Positions 2,317-21,036 of a stretch of 24,000 nucleotides of DNA are shown piece after piece. Source of the DNA: Candidatus Aenigmatarchaeota archaeon (GTDB lineage: Archaea; Aenigmatarchaeota; Aenigmatarchaeia; GW2011-AR5). The notes under the pieces are model-generated. The model was not told where the DNA came from. It was given only the letters and a program-made list of their open reading frames with translations, and made no database searches. The DNA lies in NCBI GenBank assembly GCA_016180925.1, contig JACPAH010000020.1:4620-28619 (forward strand), given 5' to 3'. The number at the start of each line of letters is the position of its first letter. Position 1 is the stretch's first letter. The position numbers and the translations under genes were made by a program.

Positions 2317-2688
2317 ATGGCAGGCGATATCGAGAGGATTCTGAGGGAGCAGGCGGACATGAATGATAGGATAGGGCGCCTCGTCAAGTCCATAAATTCC
2401 GAGTATTCTGACGCCGTTTCCGGCGAGATAGAGAAGCTTTATGCGAACGACGCCGAGCTCGAAAAGAGCATCGATGGTCTCCATGAGGCCGCAAAATCCA
2501 TGGAAACCGTCATCGAGGCCTTGGGGGAAAAAATAGACGCCCTGGCGCAGAAGATGAGATATATTGAGGAGACCAACGAGAAGATAGCCGGCGACGTAGA
2601 CATCATGGAGAGGCGGCTGTCGTCGGCCGAGAGGCTCCAGGACATGAACGGGATGGAAGAGGCCGTCAGGAAGATAAAAAGGGAATAG
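2317..2688 (+). CDS. small coiled-coil protein, hypothetical
   Basis: 123-aa ORF, Glu/Lys/Ala-rich with heptad-like character. ATG start, TAG stop. No recognisable motif. Confidence 0.55.
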   Translation: MAGDIERILREQADMNDRIGRLVKSINSEYSDAVSGEIEKLYANDAELEKSIDGLHEAAKSMETVIEALGEKIDALAQKMRYIEETNEKIAGDVDIMERRLSSAERLQDMNGMEEAVRKIKRE

Positions 2689-2723
2689 TTCTTTGCGCCT
2701 TCGGGCTTCTGCATGGCACGGAC

Positions 2724-2854
2724 GATTGTATCCAAAATAAGTATGATGGCGGACGTAGCGGTATACGCATTAATGCGTATACCGCAGCTAGGGGTATTGT
2801 GAAAACACAATACCCCTCACGTCCGCCATCGTCATACGAGAATTGGATACAATC
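2724..2854 (+). other. 131-nt nested perfect inverted repeats predicting a three-way junction (candidate BHB-like intron or palindromic insertion)
   Basis: 2724-2735 is the exact reverse complement of 2843-2854, and 2745-2756 of 2819-2830. The 4-bp GTAT/ATAC helix is 2741-2744/2834-2837. Apical hairpins are 2758-2769/2774-2785 (loop TTAA) and 2790-2801/2806-2817 (loop AAAA). The four main helices are each 12 bp, and all helices are free of mismatches and G-U pairs. Confidence 0.8.
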
Positions 2855-2979
2855 TACACATACTTGAGTACGCGGCCATACTTGCCGCCCTTCTCGCGGC
2901 TTCGTACCTTTCGTTTAGCCTTACGGGATTTCTGATTGCGGATGATTACGCATACGAAAGCGAAGTCGTAGCGACCTCG

Positions 2980-4581
2980 GTGAAGAAGGATATCGCAGAG
3001 ACTATAAAGTTCGAGAGCTTCAGGCCCGGGTCGTGCAAGGACGGCATTCTGGTGACGGTGAAGGACGGGACCGCCGTCGACTTCACGACGAAGAAGGAGA
3101 AGTACAGGGACGGCCTCTGCAAAAAGGCGACAGTGGAATTCGACAACGTCATTTACAGCAAGGCCGACAAGAAGAAGAATGCCACGTCAATAACCTATAT
3201 GATATATTACGGTAAGATATCCTCGGGCAACGGGACGTTCGGGAACGAAACCGGCGACGAATACGAGAACGGGCCTCCGGTCCTCCTGTCGGATGTGCCG
3301 GACGTCGTGATAGAGTACAACGGCTCTTATTCGCTCAACCTCTCTGAATACTTCTCGGACAGCGAGACGCTTGCATTCACTGCAGACGTTAACAGCAACA
3401 TTTCCATATCCATATCAGGCAGCGAGGCGACGCTGTCGCCTCTTTCATACCCTTATAACGGAACCCACACTGTAACTGCGAGCGACGGGGAATACACTGC
3501 GTCCAGCACTTTCAATGTCTATGCAAAGCCGCCTCCCGTCATCAACCAGACGGGACAGAACGAAGACAATGGCACTGCGCTTGACGAGAGTATATCGGTT
3601 CAAATTAGCCTGACGTATCCGGAGAACAACACGGTAATATTTGAGGGCAACCATACGTTCCTTTTCAGTGCATCAAACGGCACCTGCTCAGTCAGGCTGA
3701 GGAACCAGAGCGTCCAGAGCGAAGCTTATATTGAAAAAGGCTATTACTGGTGGGGCGTCTCATGCGAATACATGAACAGGACTTATCTTTCTGGAAAGAA
3801 TTATCTAGTTGTGATGCCCCGGACGACCATGAGTATAAATTACAGCAATGTCCAGGACCTTGCCAATGCGAGCAACATAAGCGTTGAGAACCCCTCCATA
3901 GGAAAGCTCGTCTTCGACGAGCCGATAGACCTTACGGTCGTGCAGGAGATGGAGAGGTACATAAACATATCAAGGAACCGCGTCGAGATAGATACGCAGT
4001 CAATGCAGCACCTGAACAAGAGTGCGATAGTTACTCTTTATAACATAGAGGCATCGAACCCTGTCATAAAGCAGGATGGCAGGCCATGCCCCGAGGATGT
4101 ATGCCGGATAATAAGCTACGGGAACGGCGTCCTCGTCTTCAGGGTTGGGCACTTTACCGTTTACGAGGTCGGCGACGCGCCCCAGCCTGAACCGGAGCCG
4201 CAGGCTGCACCCCAGGCTTCTGGAGGCGGCGGAAGCAGCGGGGGAAGCGGCAACTTCGCCCCGTCTCCGGAGAGCTCTTTCGGGGGAGCTGTCACAATCA
4301 CGAGAAAGAATCAGACGCAGGAGGCGGCTTCTCCCGAAGAAGTTGACGCGGAGGAACAGGCCGCGCCAACGGCGGCACAACCCTCCATGCCGCAGGAAGA
4401 GACCGTATACGAACAGCCGGTATCCGACACGAAAAATGAGAACTACATAACAGGGAGCGTGATACGATTATTTGTGGATAATGCGGTATATATTGTCGCT
4501 TTCTTTGTGGCACTCTTAGCCGGTATTGTTTTGATGAGGAAGAAAGGCATTAATGCTTCAAAAAGAAAGAAAAGACGATGA
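2980..4581 (+). CDS. C-terminally anchored, N-glycosylation-sequon-rich surface protein (true N-terminus lies upstream of the GTG at 2980)
   Basis: There are dozens of N-x-S/T sequons, a Pro/Glu/Gln/Gly/Ser linker (PQPEPEPQAAPQASGGGGSSGGSG), and a C-terminal TM helix followed by a basic tail (RKKGINASKRKKRR). The frame is open back to 2803 and encodes a signal-peptide-like LEYAAILAALLAASYLSFSLTGFLIA without any canonical start codon. Confidence 0.8.
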   Translation: MKKDIAETIKFESFRPGSCKDGILVTVKDGTAVDFTTKKEKYRDGLCKKATVEFDNVIYSKADKKKNATSITYMIYYGKISSGNGTFGNETGDEYENGPPVLLSDVPDVVIEYNGSYSLNLSEYFSDSETLAFTADVNSNISISISGSEATLSPLSYPYNGTHTVTASDGEYTASSTFNVYAKPPPVINQTGQNEDNGTALDESISVQISLTYPENNTVIFEGNHTFLFSASNGTCSVRLRNQSVQSEAYIEKGYYWWGVSCEYMNRTYLSGKNYLVVMPRTTMSINYSNVQDLANASNISVENPSIGKLVFDEPIDLTVVQEMERYINISRNRVEIDTQSMQHLNKSAIVTLYNIEASNPVIKQDGRPCPEDVCRIISYGNGVLVFRVGHFTVYEVGDAPQPEPEPQAAPQASGGGGSSGGSGNFAPSPESSFGGAVTITRKNQTQEAASPEEVDAEEQAAPTAAQPSMPQEETVYEQPVSDTKNENYITGSVIRLFVDNAVYIVAFFVALLAGIVLMRKKGINASKRKKRR

Positions 4582-11407: not shown

Positions 11408-11812
11408 ATGAAGAAAAACTCGACAGAAAGAAAGGCTATTGAAATTGTTAAAAAATTTGAACAGGAAAGAACGAATGAGATACCAGAAGAAATGCCAAAT
11501 GGACACGGCTATGACATAAAATCTGGAAATAGATTTATTGAAGTAAAAGGTACATATGGAGGTTTAGATAAGGTATGGGTTGTTTTACATCATACGTTTT
11601 TCAAGAAAATGTGGAATAGTGGAAGAAATTATTATATTTATTTCGTCTATAATTTAAATGACAAACCAAAAATGAAAATAATTAATCCAGAGAAAATATT
11701 TCCTAACTTGGAAATAGAACCTAAATACATTCTTCGTGGAAAAATCATAAGGGATAAAGAAATAGACGAAATCGATGTTTCTAAATTTTACACAGATTCT
11801 TCAGAAATATAA
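11408..11812 (+). CDS. PD-(D/E)xK nuclease-fold protein, DUF3883-like (island)
   Basis: GYDIKSGNRFIEVKGT matches the D...(E/Q)xK core as arranged in DUF3883/restriction-endonuclease-like domains, and an upstream acidic residue lies in the KKFEQER helix. Confidence 0.55.
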   Translation: MKKNSTERKAIEIVKKFEQERTNEIPEEMPNGHGYDIKSGNRFIEVKGTYGGLDKVWVVLHHTFFKKMWNSGRNYYIYFVYNLNDKPKMKIINPEKIFPNLEIEPKYILRGKIIRDKEIDEIDVSKFYTDSSEI

Positions 11813-11853: not shown

Positions 11854-12546
11854 TTATTTCTTCTTTATAGTAGGAATTTGATTGGTAAACTGCGAAGTAA
11901 CAACCTCATCATAATACTTACAATACTTTGTCACAGGACACTCCCAACAATGAGGTTTTACAGGCTTGCATATATTCTGTCCAAAGGTCACGAAAGTATC
12001 GTTAAAATCAGCCCAAAACCGTTTAGGTATAAGCTTTCTAAGTTCTTGTTCAGTTTGTTCTGGAGTCTTTGTTTCTATCCATCCTAATCTATTGGGTATC
12101 CTATGGCAGTGAATATCTATAGGCATACCTTCTTTACGATAGCCATAAACAAGGACGATATTAGCGGTTTTTCTGCCTACACCCTTTAATTTGAGCAATT
12201 CTTCCATAGTGTCCGGTACTTTGCCTTTATACTGCTCTAAAATGACCTTACTAATGTCCTTTATACGTCGTGCCTTAACCCGATAAAATCCGACAGGGAA
12301 TATGGCTTTCTCTATGCTTTTTACATTCAGCTTAACCATTTGTTGAGGTGTTTTGGCTAATTGGAATAGCCTATAGGAGGCTTTCTTAGTCGTTTCATCC
12401 CTTGTGCGTAAACTGAGCAAACAACTGATTAGGACTTCATAAGGGCTCTGGTTTTTATGACTTACTTGGGTAATTAGAGGTTCCTCAAATTTAGATACCA
12501 TTTTCTTGATAAGAGAAATGACAACAGGGATATGTTTTTTTCTCAT
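11854..12546 (-). CDS. nth: endonuclease III (HhH-GPD DNA glycosylase/AP lyase), complete, island-encoded
   Basis: SLRTRD is present. The HhH motif LLKLKGVGRKTANIVL includes the catalytic Lys, and IDIHCHRIPNRLG includes the catalytic Asp. The 4Fe-4S cluster loop CKPVKPHCWECPVTKYC is C-x6-C-x2-C-x5-C. Confidence 0.9.
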   Translation of the reverse strand: MRKKHIPVVISLIKKMVSKFEEPLITQVSHKNQSPYEVLISCLLSLRTRDETTKKASYRLFQLAKTPQQMVKLNVKSIEKAIFPVGFYRVKARRIKDISKVILEQYKGKVPDTMEELLKLKGVGRKTANIVLVYGYRKEGMPIDIHCHRIPNRLGWIETKTPEQTEQELRKLIPKRFWADFNDTFVTFGQNICKPVKPHCWECPVTKYCKYYDEVVTSQFTNQIPTIKKK

Positions 12547-12547
12547 G

Positions 12548-13537
12548 TTAAGACCTAGTTATTAAACTGCTTAATTTTTGCCTCTTTTCGGACGATGTAA
12601 AATTTATATGCTTTTGAAATTTAATGAAGTTTTCATAACCATAAATACCAAAATAAAACCTGTTTTTATTTCTTTTAATATATTTTCTGATGGGTGCAGC
12701 TTTAATGCCAAAATTTGATAATAGTTTTCTAATAGATTCTAAAATATCAGGATTATCTTGATATAATCTTATATGCCGAGATTTTATATCAACAGAAGAT
12801 TCATCATCATAAATTGCTCTAATCAATCCTGATTTAAATTCAAGTGATAAATCAAAAACTATGTCAGGAATATTTTTTCTTTTATTGTTAATGAATTTCC
12901 CGAAAATAAAAAATAATAAAATACCGGTAGATTTTGGATAAAATAATACGATATTTGCTTTACCTTTTATTTCGTCTAGATTTTCAATACGTTTTAACCA
13001 TGAAGATTTTTCTTCAAATTTCTTCTCTTTTTGCACCCATATTCTAGGTTTCACATTAAATAAATAATTCATGCTCTGAGAAAATTCATTTAATAGTTCT
13101 TTATTGCTATTTGAATAGGCGGGTTGTGATAATTTAGAATTTATCCATCCATCTCCTATAATATGACCTAATACTAATCCTAAATTTATGTCATCTTTAA
13201 TTGGAAAATTTGGTTTGATAAATTTTGTGAATCCCAACCCAAAAGATTTAATGGAAATTAAATTGTTTTCAACATCAATCCAACTATAGGATTTACTATT
13301 TTCTATAATAATTTTCAGTTTCGACATAGGCATATTACGACTTGAATAATACCATTGCTTTATCCCTATAGATTGGTTAAATTTTTTACTAAATATCATG
13401 TTAAGTTTTTCGGCTAAAATAGTATCTCTATGAGGATATTTTTCATTTGAAGCCGAATGTAGTAACTTCTTTATAAAATCTTTATTCAGACTCAAGTAAA
13501 AATCATTACTTTGTAAATTCTCCAATTGAATTTTCAT
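12548..13537 (-). CDS. double-motif LAGLIDADG homing endonuclease
   Basis: There are two LAGLIDADG-type motifs, LGLVLGHIIGDGW and GLIRAIYDDESSV, about 100 aa apart. The protein is AT-rich and Lys/Asn/Ile-rich. Its stop abuts the nth' start (TAAcATG at 12550-12544). Confidence 0.8.
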   Translation of the reverse strand: MKIQLENLQSNDFYLSLNKDFIKKLLHSASNEKYPHRDTILAEKLNMIFSKKFNQSIGIKQWYYSSRNMPMSKLKIIIENSKSYSWIDVENNLISIKSFGLGFTKFIKPNFPIKDDINLGLVLGHIIGDGWINSKLSQPAYSNSNKELLNEFSQSMNYLFNVKPRIWVQKEKKFEEKSSWLKRIENLDEIKGKANIVLFYPKSTGILLFFIFGKFINNKRKNIPDIVFDLSLEFKSGLIRAIYDDESSVDIKSRHIRLYQDNPDILESIRKLLSNFGIKAAPIRKYIKRNKNRFYFGIYGYENFIKFQKHINFTSSEKRQKLSSLITRS

Positions 13538-17058: not shown

Positions 17059-17150
17059 TATAGTGCTCCAAGAAAACATTCAGGATATTAGTTTTCTTGG
17101 GCACTATATGTGAAGCAAATAAACATGTCGGGATTCTTTATTTGCTTCAC
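17059..17150 (-). other. two adjacent long hairpins immediately 3' of aIF2-gamma (terminator or small structured RNA candidate)
   Basis: 17059-17077 pairs with 17091-17108 (18 bp, one bulged T, 13-nt loop). 17110-17123 pairs with 17137-17150 (14 bp, 13-nt loop). Confidence 0.5.
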
Positions 17151-17171: not shown

Positions 17172-18407
17172 CTAGAGGATTTCGCCCCATCCTATGAGAT
17201 GCCACCTGCCGCCGACCTGCTTTGATAATGCAACCTTGCTTCCGGCCCGAGCGCAGACAGGTATCTTCAGGCTTACATTTACGCTCTTTCCGGAGGAAGT
17301 CACCAGGCCGACAGTTTTTGATATGGCTACCGTCATCATGAGAACGTCTCCCGTCCTTATCGGCTCCACTTTCTTTACGCCTTCCACTCCTATTATATGG
17401 TCGAACGGATGGACCTTGAGGTTCAGCTGATCCATGTTGGACGGCAGGTTCTTTCCTGCGATGCTTCCGGTCATCGAGTCTCCTCTGGTGAGCGACGGGT
17501 CGAGCTCCGTCTGCATCGCGACAAGACCACCGGGCGACGCCTCGTCTACCCTGCCTGTCTGGAACATCTCTGTTATCTTTGTCGTTATGGGGCTCCATTT
17601 GTCGTTTATCTTGACCCCGGGCTTTATCTCTATCTCGTCGCCCGTCTTTATTGTGCCTTCTATCAGCGAACCGCCTATGACGCCGCCTTTGAGCTCGCCG
17701 GGCGGCGTGCCGGGCTTGTTGATGTCGAACGACCTTGCCACATAGAAAATAGGGCTTTTTGTCGCATCCCTCTTCGGGCTCGGCATGAGCCTTTCTATCT
17801 CCTCTATGAGCATGTCGATGTTGATGTTGTTTATGGCGCTGATTGGTATTATCGGGGCGTTCTCCGCGACCGTCCCTTTCACGAATTTCTTTATTTCGTC
17901 ATGGCTCTCGATCGCCCTCTTTTCCGGGACCAGGTCTATCTTGTTCTGGACTATTATTATGTTCTTTATTCCCGCTATATCCAGCGCCTTGAGATGCTCG
18001 GCTGTCTGGGGCTGGGGGCATTTCTCGTCCGCGGATATCAGGAGAAGCGCTCCGTCCATCAGCGCCGCGCCCGACAGGACGGTCGCCATCAGCGTCTCGT
18101 GGCCGGGGGCGTCCACGAAGCTTACCGCCCTCTTCGGCCTGCAGTCGCCGAAGCATGACATGCATTTCCTGGCGTTGCCGTATTTCCTGCATTTGTCGCA
18201 GTAGTAGAACGTGACGTCGGCGTAGCCCAGCCTTATCGTGATGCCCCTTTTCATTTCCTCGCTGTGGGTGTCCGTCCACTTGCCCGTCAGGGTCTGTGCC
18301 AGGCTGGTCTTCCCGTGGTCCACGTGCCCGACCATTCCTATGTTTATCTCTGGCTTCATTTCATCTTCGTTCTGTTTCATCTCTGTTTTCTTCGGGAAAG
18401 AAACCAC
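17172..18407 (-). CDS. eif2g: translation initiation factor aIF2 gamma subunit
   Basis: G1 motif GHVDHGKTSL, DAPGHE and NKID are present. The zinc knuckle is CDKCRKYGNARKCMSCFGDC. An alternative start is the ATG at 18380 (MKQNEDE...). Confidence 0.95.
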   Translation of the reverse strand: MVSFPKKTEMKQNEDEMKPEINIGMVGHVDHGKTSLAQTLTGKWTDTHSEEMKRGITIRLGYADVTFYYCDKCRKYGNARKCMSCFGDCRPKRAVSFVDAPGHETLMATVLSGAALMDGALLLISADEKCPQPQTAEHLKALDIAGIKNIIIVQNKIDLVPEKRAIESHDEIKKFVKGTVAENAPIIPISAINNINIDMLIEEIERLMPSPKRDATKSPIFYVARSFDINKPGTPPGELKGGVIGGSLIEGTIKTGDEIEIKPGVKINDKWSPITTKITEMFQTGRVDEASPGGLVAMQTELDPSLTRGDSMTGSIAGKNLPSNMDQLNLKVHPFDHIIGVEGVKKVEPIRTGDVLMMTVAISKTVGLVTSSGKSVNVSLKIPVCARAGSKVALSKQVGGRWHLIGWGEIL

Positions 18408-19330: not shown

Positions 19331-19599
19331 TATACATCCCTTTCTTTCCGAAAGAAAGGTCTGTATCAACCCCAAAGAAAGGGCCTACAGACCTTCTTGA
19401 AAAAACCTTATAAGGAAGCAGCGAATCTCTTCATTGCTTCCCAGTTTTTTCAGCCGGGCTAATGCATTTGTTGGAGATAAAGCTTATAAATCCGCTGCAC
19501 TAGCGCAGCGGATTTGTGTGCAGAAAGCATAGATTTCTGACATCTCAAAAGAGCAAAGCTCTTTTGCAGACATATAAAATTTCCATACATCTTAACACC

Positions 19600-21036
19600 A
19601 TGAAAGCCCGCGTAGACGAAAAGTGGCCGTTCCACTTCTCCGAAATCCTGCTGAAGGGCAACCCTGAAAGCAGCGTCGCCGTGTGCACCCTGTGGACGCT
19701 GAAGGAGAAGTTCCTGCCGCTTGAAAACTTCGCCCTGATAGGCAACATGTATTACGGCGAGGGCGTGAGTTATCTTCTCCGCGGCATCCTCTCCAACCCC
19801 AACATACGCTATCTGGTGCTGTGCGGCGTTGACATATCGAATAGTGGCGAAGCCCTTGTTTCCATGTTCAAAAATGGCATCGACGACAACCACATGATAA
19901 TCGGGACCGGCGTTGAAGTGCACAAGGAAATTCCCAGAGATGCGATAGAGGACGTCAGGAAGCACGTTTTTCTCGTGGATATGCGCGGCGCAATAGACGG
20001 CGATAAAGTTGCGTCAAAAATAAGGGAGCTTGAGCCGCTGGACGCCTTTGGCGAGCCCAGGACGTTTCCCATGCCCGAGATTAAAAAAGTCGGCACGTTC
20101 CCGTCCGAGAAGACGGGATTCATAGTGCGCGAGGGGAAGATAGCCGACGCCTGGCTGCGCATCGTCAGGCACGTGATGAAATTTGGCAAGATAAAGAAGA
20201 GCCAGCAGGCGTCGGACATGCGAGAAGTCGTTAACCTGGTCTCGGTGATAGAAGACGAGAACCCGTCGGACCCGTATCTGCCTGAATTCATGCCGTTCGG
20301 CATCCGGGAGATAGAGAATTATTATCCGCAAATCATGACTCCCAAGGGCATCCCGGGCACAAAGTATACATACGGCCAGAAACTGCGGGACTTTCATGGC
20401 GTTAACCAGGTCGAATACATCATAGAGGACCTTAAGCGCACGCCATATTCCCGGCGCGCCGTGGCTGTGACATGGAACCCCGAAACGGACACGCGGAATG
20501 ACAATCCCCCCTGCTGGATAGTTGTGCAGTGCATCATTCAGGACCCGTATCTTTACCTGACATGCTATATCAGGACCAATGACATGTTCGCGGCGTGGCC
20601 CCTGAATGCGTTCGGCCTGCGCAAATTGCAGCAGGAAATAGCGGCCTCTCTTGGCGTCAAACTAGGGCCTTTGATAGTAGTTTCATGCAGCGCCCATATA
20701 TACAGCCACGACTGGAACAAGGCAAAAGAGCTGATAGATAAATACGGGCCGTCCCGGAAGTTCGTTGCGGACCCGCGGGGAAACTTCGTCATAAGGCTGG
20801 ACAGGGAGAAACAGGAACTCATTGTTACGCATTATTCGCCTGAGCAGAAGCAGCTGCAGGAATTCGCGGGGAAGACGGCCGTGGAGCTTTACAGGAAGAT
20901 ACTGGATGCGGACGCAATCTCCATGCCGGGGCACATGATGGACTTGGGCTGCGAACTCCAGAAAGCCGATACCGCCCTCAGGCAGGGTATAGTCTACGAG
21001 CAGGACAAGCCACTGGACTTCGGGAAGAAAGTTTGA
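19600..21036 (+). CDS. thyA: thymidylate synthase (ThyA-type core) with an N-terminal MtrA-like/pterin-associated domain and a C-terminal DUF4346-like domain
   Basis: ThyA core: RRAVAVTWNPETD, PPCW (catalytic Cys context), YIRTNDMFAAWPLNAFGL. C-terminal: RGNFVIRLDREKQELIVTHY...GHMMDLGCELQKADTAL...YEQDKPL, which resembles DUF4346. The ATG at 19600 is preferred over the 19516 extension, which crosses promoter hairpins. Confidence 0.8.
   Translation: MKARVDEKWPFHFSEILLKGNPESSVAVCTLWTLKEKFLPLENFALIGNMYYGEGVSYLLRGILSNPNIRYLVLCGVDISNSGEALVSMFKNGIDDNHMIIGTGVEVHKEIPRDAIEDVRKHVFLVDMRGAIDGDKVASKIRELEPLDAFGEPRTFPMPEIKKVGTFPSEKTGFIVREGKIADAWLRIVRHVMKFGKIKKSQQASDMREVVNLVSVIEDENPSDPYLPEFMPFGIREIENYYPQIMTPKGIPGTKYTYGQKLRDFHGVNQVEYIIEDLKRTPYSRRAVAVTWNPETDTRNDNPPCWIVVQCIIQDPYLYLTCYIRTNDMFAAWPLNAFGLRKLQQEIAASLGVKLGPLIVVSCSAHIYSHDWNKAKELIDKYGPSRKFVADPRGNFVIRLDREKQELIVTHYSPEQKQLQEFAGKTAVELYRKILDADAISMPGHMMDLGCELQKADTALRQGIVYEQDKPLDFGKKV

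Follow-up and report, generated by a model that had tools for sequence, protein, structure and literature searches.

A palindromic element of 131 nt, at positions 2724–2854, lies at the 5′ end of a surface-protein gene in a 24,000-nt stretch of DNA from Candidatus Aenigmatarchaeota archaeon (contig JACPAH010000020.1; the whole stretch is hereafter called the window). A first-pass annotation had read this element as a bulge-helix-bulge (BHB)-type mRNA intron and had named as its alternative a palindromic insertion resembling a miniature inverted-repeat transposable element (MITE). We conclude that 2724–2854 is very probably a MITE copy inserted into the surface-protein gene, with an adjacent deletion or rearrangement, and not an RNA intron. 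The element was called a MITE because it has terminal inverted repeats, target duplications, several unrelated sites and a small non-coding size, which together characterize such elements (PMC11602168, PMC10969869). Specifically, we looked for a non-coding length of about 50–800 bp, terminal inverted repeats of at least 10–15 bp, direct target duplications, several copies at unrelated loci together with empty orthologous sites, and a cognate autonomous element. Full copies measure 130–131 nt, and no reading frame is kept between them; a perfect 12-bp terminal repeat is invariant in all five; direct target duplications flank four of them (loci L001, L002, L003, and L005), the window copy having none; one decayed copy adds to the five full ones, and three orthologous loci (L030, L031, and L032) are without the element.

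The limits of the element are the ends common to the five full copies in two genomes, and they read GATTG...CAATC directly. In the window copy, all 52 bp are Watson-Crick pairs without a flaw. Upon rechecking the pairing listed in the first-pass annotation, we found the helices 2724–2735/2843–2854, 2741–2744/2834–2837, and 2745–2756/2819–2830 and both apical hairpins to be perfect, with no mismatch or G-U pair. The left terminal inverted repeat (GATTGTATCCAA, 2724–2735, plus strand) and the right one (2843–2854, minus strand) match perfectly over 12 bp and continue imperfectly to 2756 and from 2819, respectively, so that the whole imperfect repeat spans 33/36 nt (about 33–36 bp). The two arms differ by a 5-nt mismatch block (2838–2842 versus 2736–2740) and a 3-nt indel (2831–2833). 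An inverted-repeat finder returned the arms 2724–2746/2832–2854 (outer 12 bp perfect) and 2745–2756/2819–2830 (12 bp, 100%), and in the apical part 2758–2771/2772–2785 (14 bp, 100%) and 2790–2801/2806–2817 (12 bp, 100%). Apical hairpin 1 (2758–2785) is perfect over 12–14 bp, and apical hairpin 2 (2790–2817) has 12 bp and a 4-nt loop and holds an in-frame TGA at 2800–2802. When 2700–2870 was folded as RNA, a three-way junction was both the minimum-free-energy and the centroid structure, at −86.9 kcal/mol versus −41.8 ± 4.0 kcal/mol for dinucleotide shuffles (z = −11.3; none of 200 shuffles was as good), and the opposite strand of the palindrome region, folded as DNA, gave z = −13.3. ARAGORN detected no tRNA in the element region, and the concatenated six-frame peptides of the element, compared with the protein collection for spurious open reading frames (ORFs) over other copies, gave no match.

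Near-identical copies at unrelated intergenic sites, which the first-pass annotation had named among the findings that would refute its intron reading, were indeed found, with target-site duplications, and its alternative was thus borne out by copies, terminal repeats, and duplications alike. Scanning one genome per species with the pattern GATTGTATCCAA-N(95–120)-TTGGATACAATC retrieved four matches on four contigs of one Aenigmatarchaeota metagenome-assembled genome (MAG), JACPJX01, namely L001, L002, L003, and L005, plus a fifth match, L004. The four JACPJX01 copies end exactly as the window element does, and two of them run in the reverse direction. L002 (1811–1941) is the exact reverse complement of window 2724–2854, identical at 131/131 positions, and the five full copies comprise four distinct sequences. 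Direct 9-bp duplications, matching at 9/9 positions, flank L002 (AAGGTTTAA), L003 (GTTAACAGA), and L005 (CCGGCTCAC), whereas L001 has a 16-bp one, TTTTCAGAG(C/T)CCGAAC, that is identical at 15/16 positions; the chance probability of each 9-mer flank match is ~4e-6. All four are intergenic and adjoin unrelated housekeeping genes, among the neighbors being seryl- and Trp/Tyr-type tRNA synthetases, a T2SSF-like protein, and membrane proteins.

At L001 (1752–1767), L002 (1942–1950), and L005 (4403–4411), three of the four JACPJX01 copies, the neighboring gene on the minus strand has a stop codon that overlaps the duplicated target, and in the same three the distance from coding sequence to element is 3–6 nt. 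This placement at gene ends may reflect either a target preference or the survivorship of such insertions in a compact genome. L001 (1605–1767) is the most divergent copy: it alone has a 16-bp repeat in place of 9 bp, and all compensatory changes of hairpin 2 are found in it.

A covariance model built from the five full copies, which themselves scored 148–157 bits, recovered a decayed 119-nt relative, L006, at 31.6 bits on an unrelated low-GC metagenome contig (Ga0209541_10011540, 9665–9783; GC 0.36), next to a PIN-domain gene. L006 keeps a perfect right terminal repeat, its left one is degenerate, and the P3 stem is gone; both apical hairpins are retained, with different sequences. No second copy was detected in the window by the covariance model and repeat searches, and none in the orthologous loci by the covariance model. 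A one-end pattern gave 24 loci among metagenome contigs, of which 23 were chance matches in unrelated coding sequence and the remaining one was L006; the same kind of scan gave no copy among viral contigs, and blastn gave none among phages and plasmids. No solo terminal repeat was found. L004, on contig DAOUIN010000347.1 of a 'Dehalococcoidia' MAG, was dropped as a relative: its interior is unrelated, and its ~217-nt palindrome (1–217) extends to contig base 1, because of which we regard it as most likely a fold-back assembly artefact that matched the repeat pattern by chance.

Several points weigh against the MITE identification. An autonomous element or transposase with these repeats was found neither in the window or about 35 kb around the other copies nor in the collection scans, and neither a transposase nor an integrase appeared in Pfam scans of ORFs from the window and from around the other copies. 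Only six copies are known. The window copy has no target duplication, its flanks agreeing at 5/9 positions, and because of this the insertion at the window locus had to be deduced from the other copies and the orthologues. An ATG upstream of the element, at 2713, is in frame with the surface-protein gene, and since its context ATG-GCA-CGG-A is similar to ATG-AAC-CGG-A in L032, it could be a true ancestral start. Moreover, a purely selfish, decaying MITE would not need the strict compensation of every stem change that is described below. Lastly, assembly collapse of two nearby copies may have occurred at the window locus. Even so, the favored picture is of a small, non-autonomous DNA transposon that would circulate in groundwater Aenigmarchaeota, mobilized by a transposase presumably supplied in trans that would cut its target in a staggered manner, usually 9 bp apart. 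A 9-bp duplication fits several transposase families.

The coding problem at the window locus is as follows. The left flank (2689–2723, plus strand) is what remains of the intergenic spacer; its last bases are GGCACGGAC, and it holds ATG 2713. From this ATG, a 29-codon ORF (2713–2802, plus strand; MARTIVSKI...), probably not a gene, runs from the flank into the element, reads MARTIVSKISMMADVAVYALMRIPQLGVL, and stops at TGA 2800–2802. The same frame is open from 2803 onward (...HILEYAAILAALLAASYLSFSLTGFLIA..., ...HILEYAAILAALLAASYLSFSLTGFLIADD...), and no in-frame ATG, GTG, or TTG occurs from 2803 to 2979. The coding statements of the first-pass annotation were confirmed by script. The stretch 2855–2979 (plus strand), whose first two bases complete a codon begun at 2854, is a start-less 5′ coding remnant that encodes an N-terminal signal-anchor helix; its alignment with the orthologues P0002, P0003, and P0004 covers their residues 7 to about 48. 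The rest of the ORF (2980–4581, plus strand) is annotated as the database protein P0001 ('Candidatus Aenigmarchaeota archaeon', 533 amino acids), which is called from GTG 2980, a codon that corresponds to an internal Val of the orthologues, and lacks a hydrophobic N terminus, in line with the earlier remark that the protein as called has no signal peptide. The surface protein (2857–4578, plus strand) matches the Nup98-96 S59 autopeptidase family PF04096 at 30.6 bits versus a curated cut-off of 28.4 bits, and it carries a C-terminal transmembrane anchor and many N-x-S/T sites.

The surface-protein family includes three full-length relatives, at loci L030, L031 (the JACPJX01 orthologue), and L032. 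That orthologues might lack the element had been foreseen in the first-pass annotation; in all three, the gene is uninterrupted, and the canonical start lies where the element now sits in the window. The genes of L030 follow the order found in the window, namely membrane protein, amidotransferase, 123-amino-acid coiled-coil protein, surface protein, and HAD hydrolase, with protein identities of 79–84%. The 123-amino-acid coiled-coil gene stands directly upstream of the left flank (2317–2688, plus strand; 83% identical in L030), and as it is shared with L030 in the same order, both flanks of the element belong to one locus. The orthologues start with MKKKEEIHILEY, MKRREEVHILEY, or MNRNEVHILEY, following the pattern M-K/N-K/R-x-E-(E)-(I/V)-H-I-L-E-Y, and a AAAATATTAAT-like (TATA-type) box is located ~25 nt upstream of the start in L030 and L031, with similar AT-rich boxes in L032.

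Comparison with L030 located the break. The right flank in the window, TA CAC ATA CTT GAG, starts with base 2 of the orthologous Ile7 codon, L030 reading GAG ATA CAC ATA CTC GAG at this position. By the L030 comparison and the protein alignment, its first 9 nt (TACACATAC, 2855–2863, plus strand) are the presumed 9-bp target and correspond to the orthologous codons Ile7-His-Ile-Leu. On the left side, the window and L030 are identical through the upstream stop codon plus 9 nt and then align loosely over ~25 nt, and about 57 nt of L030 have no counterpart in the window; these comprise the TATA-like box and ATG AAG AAG AAG GAA GAG A, the first six codons. The 9 nt on the left, GGCACGGAC, agree with the 9 nt on the right, TACACATAC, at 5/9 positions.

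Simple excision does not restore the gene. Precise excision of the 131 nt was rejected, since it gives MARTTHT followed by a stop (a frameshift plus stop), and so was precise excision of the element plus 9 nt, after which no start codon remains. A deletion of 132 nt, as proposed in the first-pass annotation, did restore a continuous frame (MARIHILEY...), as does any removal of 132 nt, but the product is not a true empty site, promoter and start codons apparently having been lost as well. Because the flanks match at only 5/9 positions and the simple excision models fail, we infer an insertion followed by a loss on the left side. The element would have inserted into codons 7–10 of the surface-protein gene, at the target TACACATAC; then the DNA to its left would have been lost, and with it the TATA-like promoter box, codons 1–6, and one copy of the target, perhaps through a transposase-mediated adjacent deletion or through recombination between two nearby copies. 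The outcome would be an intact-looking reading frame without start and without promoter. ATG 2713 is then most likely a fortuitous triplet in the spacer remnant, in frame by a 1-in-3 chance. The weaker alternative is that ATG-GCA-CGG-A, comparable to ATG-AAC-CGG-A in L032, is the true ancestral start and that only ~17 nt were lost. Under either start, the TGA in hairpin 2 would block translation from ATG 2713, and, judged from its sequence, the surface-protein gene most likely either is inactive or encodes a product truncated at the N terminus. That the ORF is still intact would be due to the recency of the event.

The divergence of the two host genomes bears on this timing. In the best-conserved neighboring gene, the window genome and JACPJX01 are 87% identical in nucleotides and 88% in amino acids; the HAD hydrolases are 46% identical in amino acids, and the surface-protein genes agree at 69% of nucleotides and 59% of amino acids. 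With 87% identity as the expectation, 131 unchanged positions would arise by chance with a probability of about 1e-8. Given that the window and L002 copies are nevertheless identical at 131/131 positions, the comparison implies that the element, or its mobilizer, would have moved recently between these co-occurring lineages. A 100% identical copy between genomes that are ~87% identical in a conserved gene thus points to recent exchange of mobile DNA among co-occurring, ultra-small archaea.

Strict stem compensation is the single unusual feature of the element. Across the four distinct full-length sequences, all 208 of 208 pair cells hold standard pairs. Seven pairs, in P3 and both apical hairpins (three in each hairpin), are altered on both sides; none is broken, and there is one G-U only. 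In the compensation control, 0/500 shuffles reached the observed values, and shifted registers fell to 20–44% pairing. The two inner hairpins are a property that the element itself conserves; across the six copies, either selection for a folded single strand or palindrome-templated mutation may have kept them. Intrastrand template switching can copy mutations of one arm into the other arm. If it is the fold that is selected, the fact that the two strands fold equally well speaks for DNA more than for a single RNA strand. These strictly compensated hairpins offer a small testable case of whether MITE structure is selected or results from palindrome-templated mutation.

The same compensation favors the first rival reading, namely that the element is a structured gene for a non-coding RNA, present in several copies, or a cis-regulatory RNA (for example, a stability or processing element of untranslated regions) selected for its RNA fold. 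The seven pairs changed on both sides with none broken, the failure of all 500 shuffles to equal this, the hairpins kept in the decayed L006, and the location of three JACPJX01 copies in 3′ untranslated regions, immediately behind stop codons, are all in its favor. However, the target-site duplications and terminal inverted repeats show movement as DNA, and the copies occur in both orientations. Furthermore, a single G-U in 208 pair cells and equally good folding of both strands are unexpected for selection on one RNA strand. No Rfam family was found for the element at gathering or permissive thresholds; the best hits were plant and animal miRNA-precursor models at E > 1, which simply mirror the long hairpin. 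We therefore consider a structured RNA unlikely as the primary identity of the element. The two readings are not mutually exclusive, as MITE transcripts are often structured (PMC10969869).

The headline proposal of the first-pass annotation was an mRNA intron of the BHB or relaxed bulge-helix-loop type. A tRNA-splicing endonuclease would cut a transcript starting from ATG 2713 at the 5 × 5 loop and at the GTC bulge, remove 93 nt together with the TGA, and ligation would yield a protein with a signal anchor. The canonical substrate of this enzyme is a 4-bp helix between two 3-nt bulges (PMC7714728), with broader specificity in (αβ)2 and ARMAN-type enzymes; only two archaeal mRNA substrates are known (PMC7714728, PMC2738675). 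The arithmetic of the proposal is correct: deleting 2740–2832 (93 nt) preserves the frame, eliminates the sole stop, and gives MARTIVSKIHTRIGYNLHILEY... as a continuous reading. In addition, one 3-nt bulge does lie beside a short helix, the downstream ORF remains intact, and non-canonical motifs are taken by some endonucleases of DPANN (ARMAN) and TACK archaea (PMC7714728, PMC2738675).

Nevertheless, the geometry and the copies speak otherwise, and we judge such an intron very unlikely. Canonical BHB geometry is absent, since the single 3-nt bulge stands opposite a 5 × 5 internal loop (AATAA/GAGAA; GATAA/GATAA in L001) that cannot be redrawn as a bulge. As for the claimed half-site of a 4-bp helix plus GTC bulge, the pairing is present, but it is one among several equivalent registers: the right arm has the sequence TC-GTC-ATAC, the bulge follows 6 bp in the RNAfold structure of the window copy and 3 bp in that of L001, and the central helix has 3, 4, or 6 bp by register and copy. 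Near-identical copies at unrelated intergenic sites, in both orientations and flanked by target duplications, all have the bulge and the loop, and because of this both are features of the repeats of a DNA transposon; they are the 3-nt indel and the 5-nt mismatch block by which the imperfect terminal repeats differ. The excised length would be 92 nt, not 93 nt, in L003 and L005. The spliced N terminus, MARTIVSKIHTRIGYNL, would place 20 residues before HILEY, 13 of them encoded by the element, whereas the orthologues have 5–6. The numerical fit is also weak, as an in-frame ATG together with a length of 93 divisible by 3 is expected in about 1 in 9 cases.

A combination of both ideas can be conceived, in which the transposon fold would let a broad-specificity DPANN splicing endonuclease excise the element from transcripts and would partly forgive insertions into genes; we hold this to be quite improbable. 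Were it true, the element would parallel, in archaea, the transposon-derived 'introners' of eukaryotes and would open a way for BHB introns to be gained, and the strict stem compensation would reflect selection for the RNA fold.

A translated in-frame palindromic insertion, similar to the Rickettsia palindromic elements, or readthrough or recoding of TGA 2800 is extremely unlikely. The frame of ATG 2713 does cross the whole element with a single stop, and the L001 variant is fully open in this frame. However, that stop interrupts the window copy, the element plus its 9-bp duplication amounts to 140 nt, a length not divisible by 3, and the other copies are intergenic. TGA is the stop of 5/15 long ORFs in the window, the surface-protein gene included, and stop-codon recoding was rejected on this basis. 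Hardly any weight can be given to a folded single-strand site of recombination or transposition, either an integron attC or a palindrome-associated element of the IS200/IS605 type: hairpins perfect on both strands would suit it, as would the imperfect palindromes and their extrahelical bases, but the element has terminal inverted repeats and 9-bp target duplications, which attC sites and IS200/IS605 elements do not have, its ends GATTG...CAATC lack the attC core GTTRRRY, and Pfam scans of the genes near the element copies revealed no integrase, TnpA, or TnpB.

Other features of the window were recorded as well. The segment 11000–14000 is a low-GC island (0.31–0.33 versus about 0.5 elsewhere) and is probably a horizontally acquired segment; it contains a NOV_C/DUF3883-like ORF (11408–11812, plus strand), an endonuclease III-like HhH-GPD gene (11854–12546, minus strand), and a free-standing LAGLIDADG_3 homing-endonuclease-like protein (12548–13537, minus strand). 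At 19516–21036 (plus strand), a single ORF of 506 amino acids joins MtrA-like, thymidylate-synthase, and PterinBD-DUF4346 domains, an unusual fusion. A perfect 14-bp inverted repeat, GTGAAGCAAATAAA ... TTTATTTGCTTCAC, is found at 17110–17150, ~20 nt downstream of the aIF2-gamma gene (17172–18407, minus strand).

Compared with known systems, the element most resembles prokaryotic MITEs such as Sulfolobus SM1–SM4 and Coxiella QMITE2, which have direct repeats of 7–9 bp, terminal repeats of 23–29 bp, and cores of 113–145 bp (PMC10969869). Like these, it is small and non-coding, has terminal inverted repeats and 9-bp duplications, and is multi-copy and mostly intergenic, and its transcript is predicted to fold into a very stable stem-loop. 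Unlike them, it forms a three-way junction with two inner perfect hairpins and not one long hairpin, all stem differences between its copies are compensated, one copy has a 16-bp duplication, and no parental insertion sequence was found in the window, around the copies, or in the collection scans. Literature searches found no MITE family of this kind described for Aenigmarchaeota, and this is apparently an undescribed family in these DPANN archaea.

Among structured bacterial intergenic repeats, ERIC, Correia, and BOX (reviewed in PMC10969869) are likewise imperfect palindromes of ~130 nt at gene ends that are co-transcribed with genes, but the sequence of the element is unrelated to them and its host is an archaeon. 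With the Rickettsia palindromic elements (PMC10969869), it shares the presence of a palindromic mobile element inside a protein-coding gene; those, however, insert in frame and are translated, whereas the element here carries a stop, its other copies are intergenic, and it is not a multiple of 3 once the duplication is counted. The known archaeal mRNA BHB introns, in cbf5 of Crenarchaeota (PMC2738675) and in the 5′ untranslated region of HVO_1309 of Haloferax (PMC7714728), resemble it as structured inserts near the 5′ end of an mRNA, with one 3-nt bulge beside a short helix and a frame-keeping removal. It differs from them in having no second bulge, a variable helix register, a predicted exon 1 made mostly of element sequence, and the character of a DNA-level repeat with target duplications. 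Decapitation by a mobile element would explain the annotation puzzle of a conserved archaeal surface protein that seems to be without a signal anchor, and it would make a new RNA-processing mechanism unnecessary.

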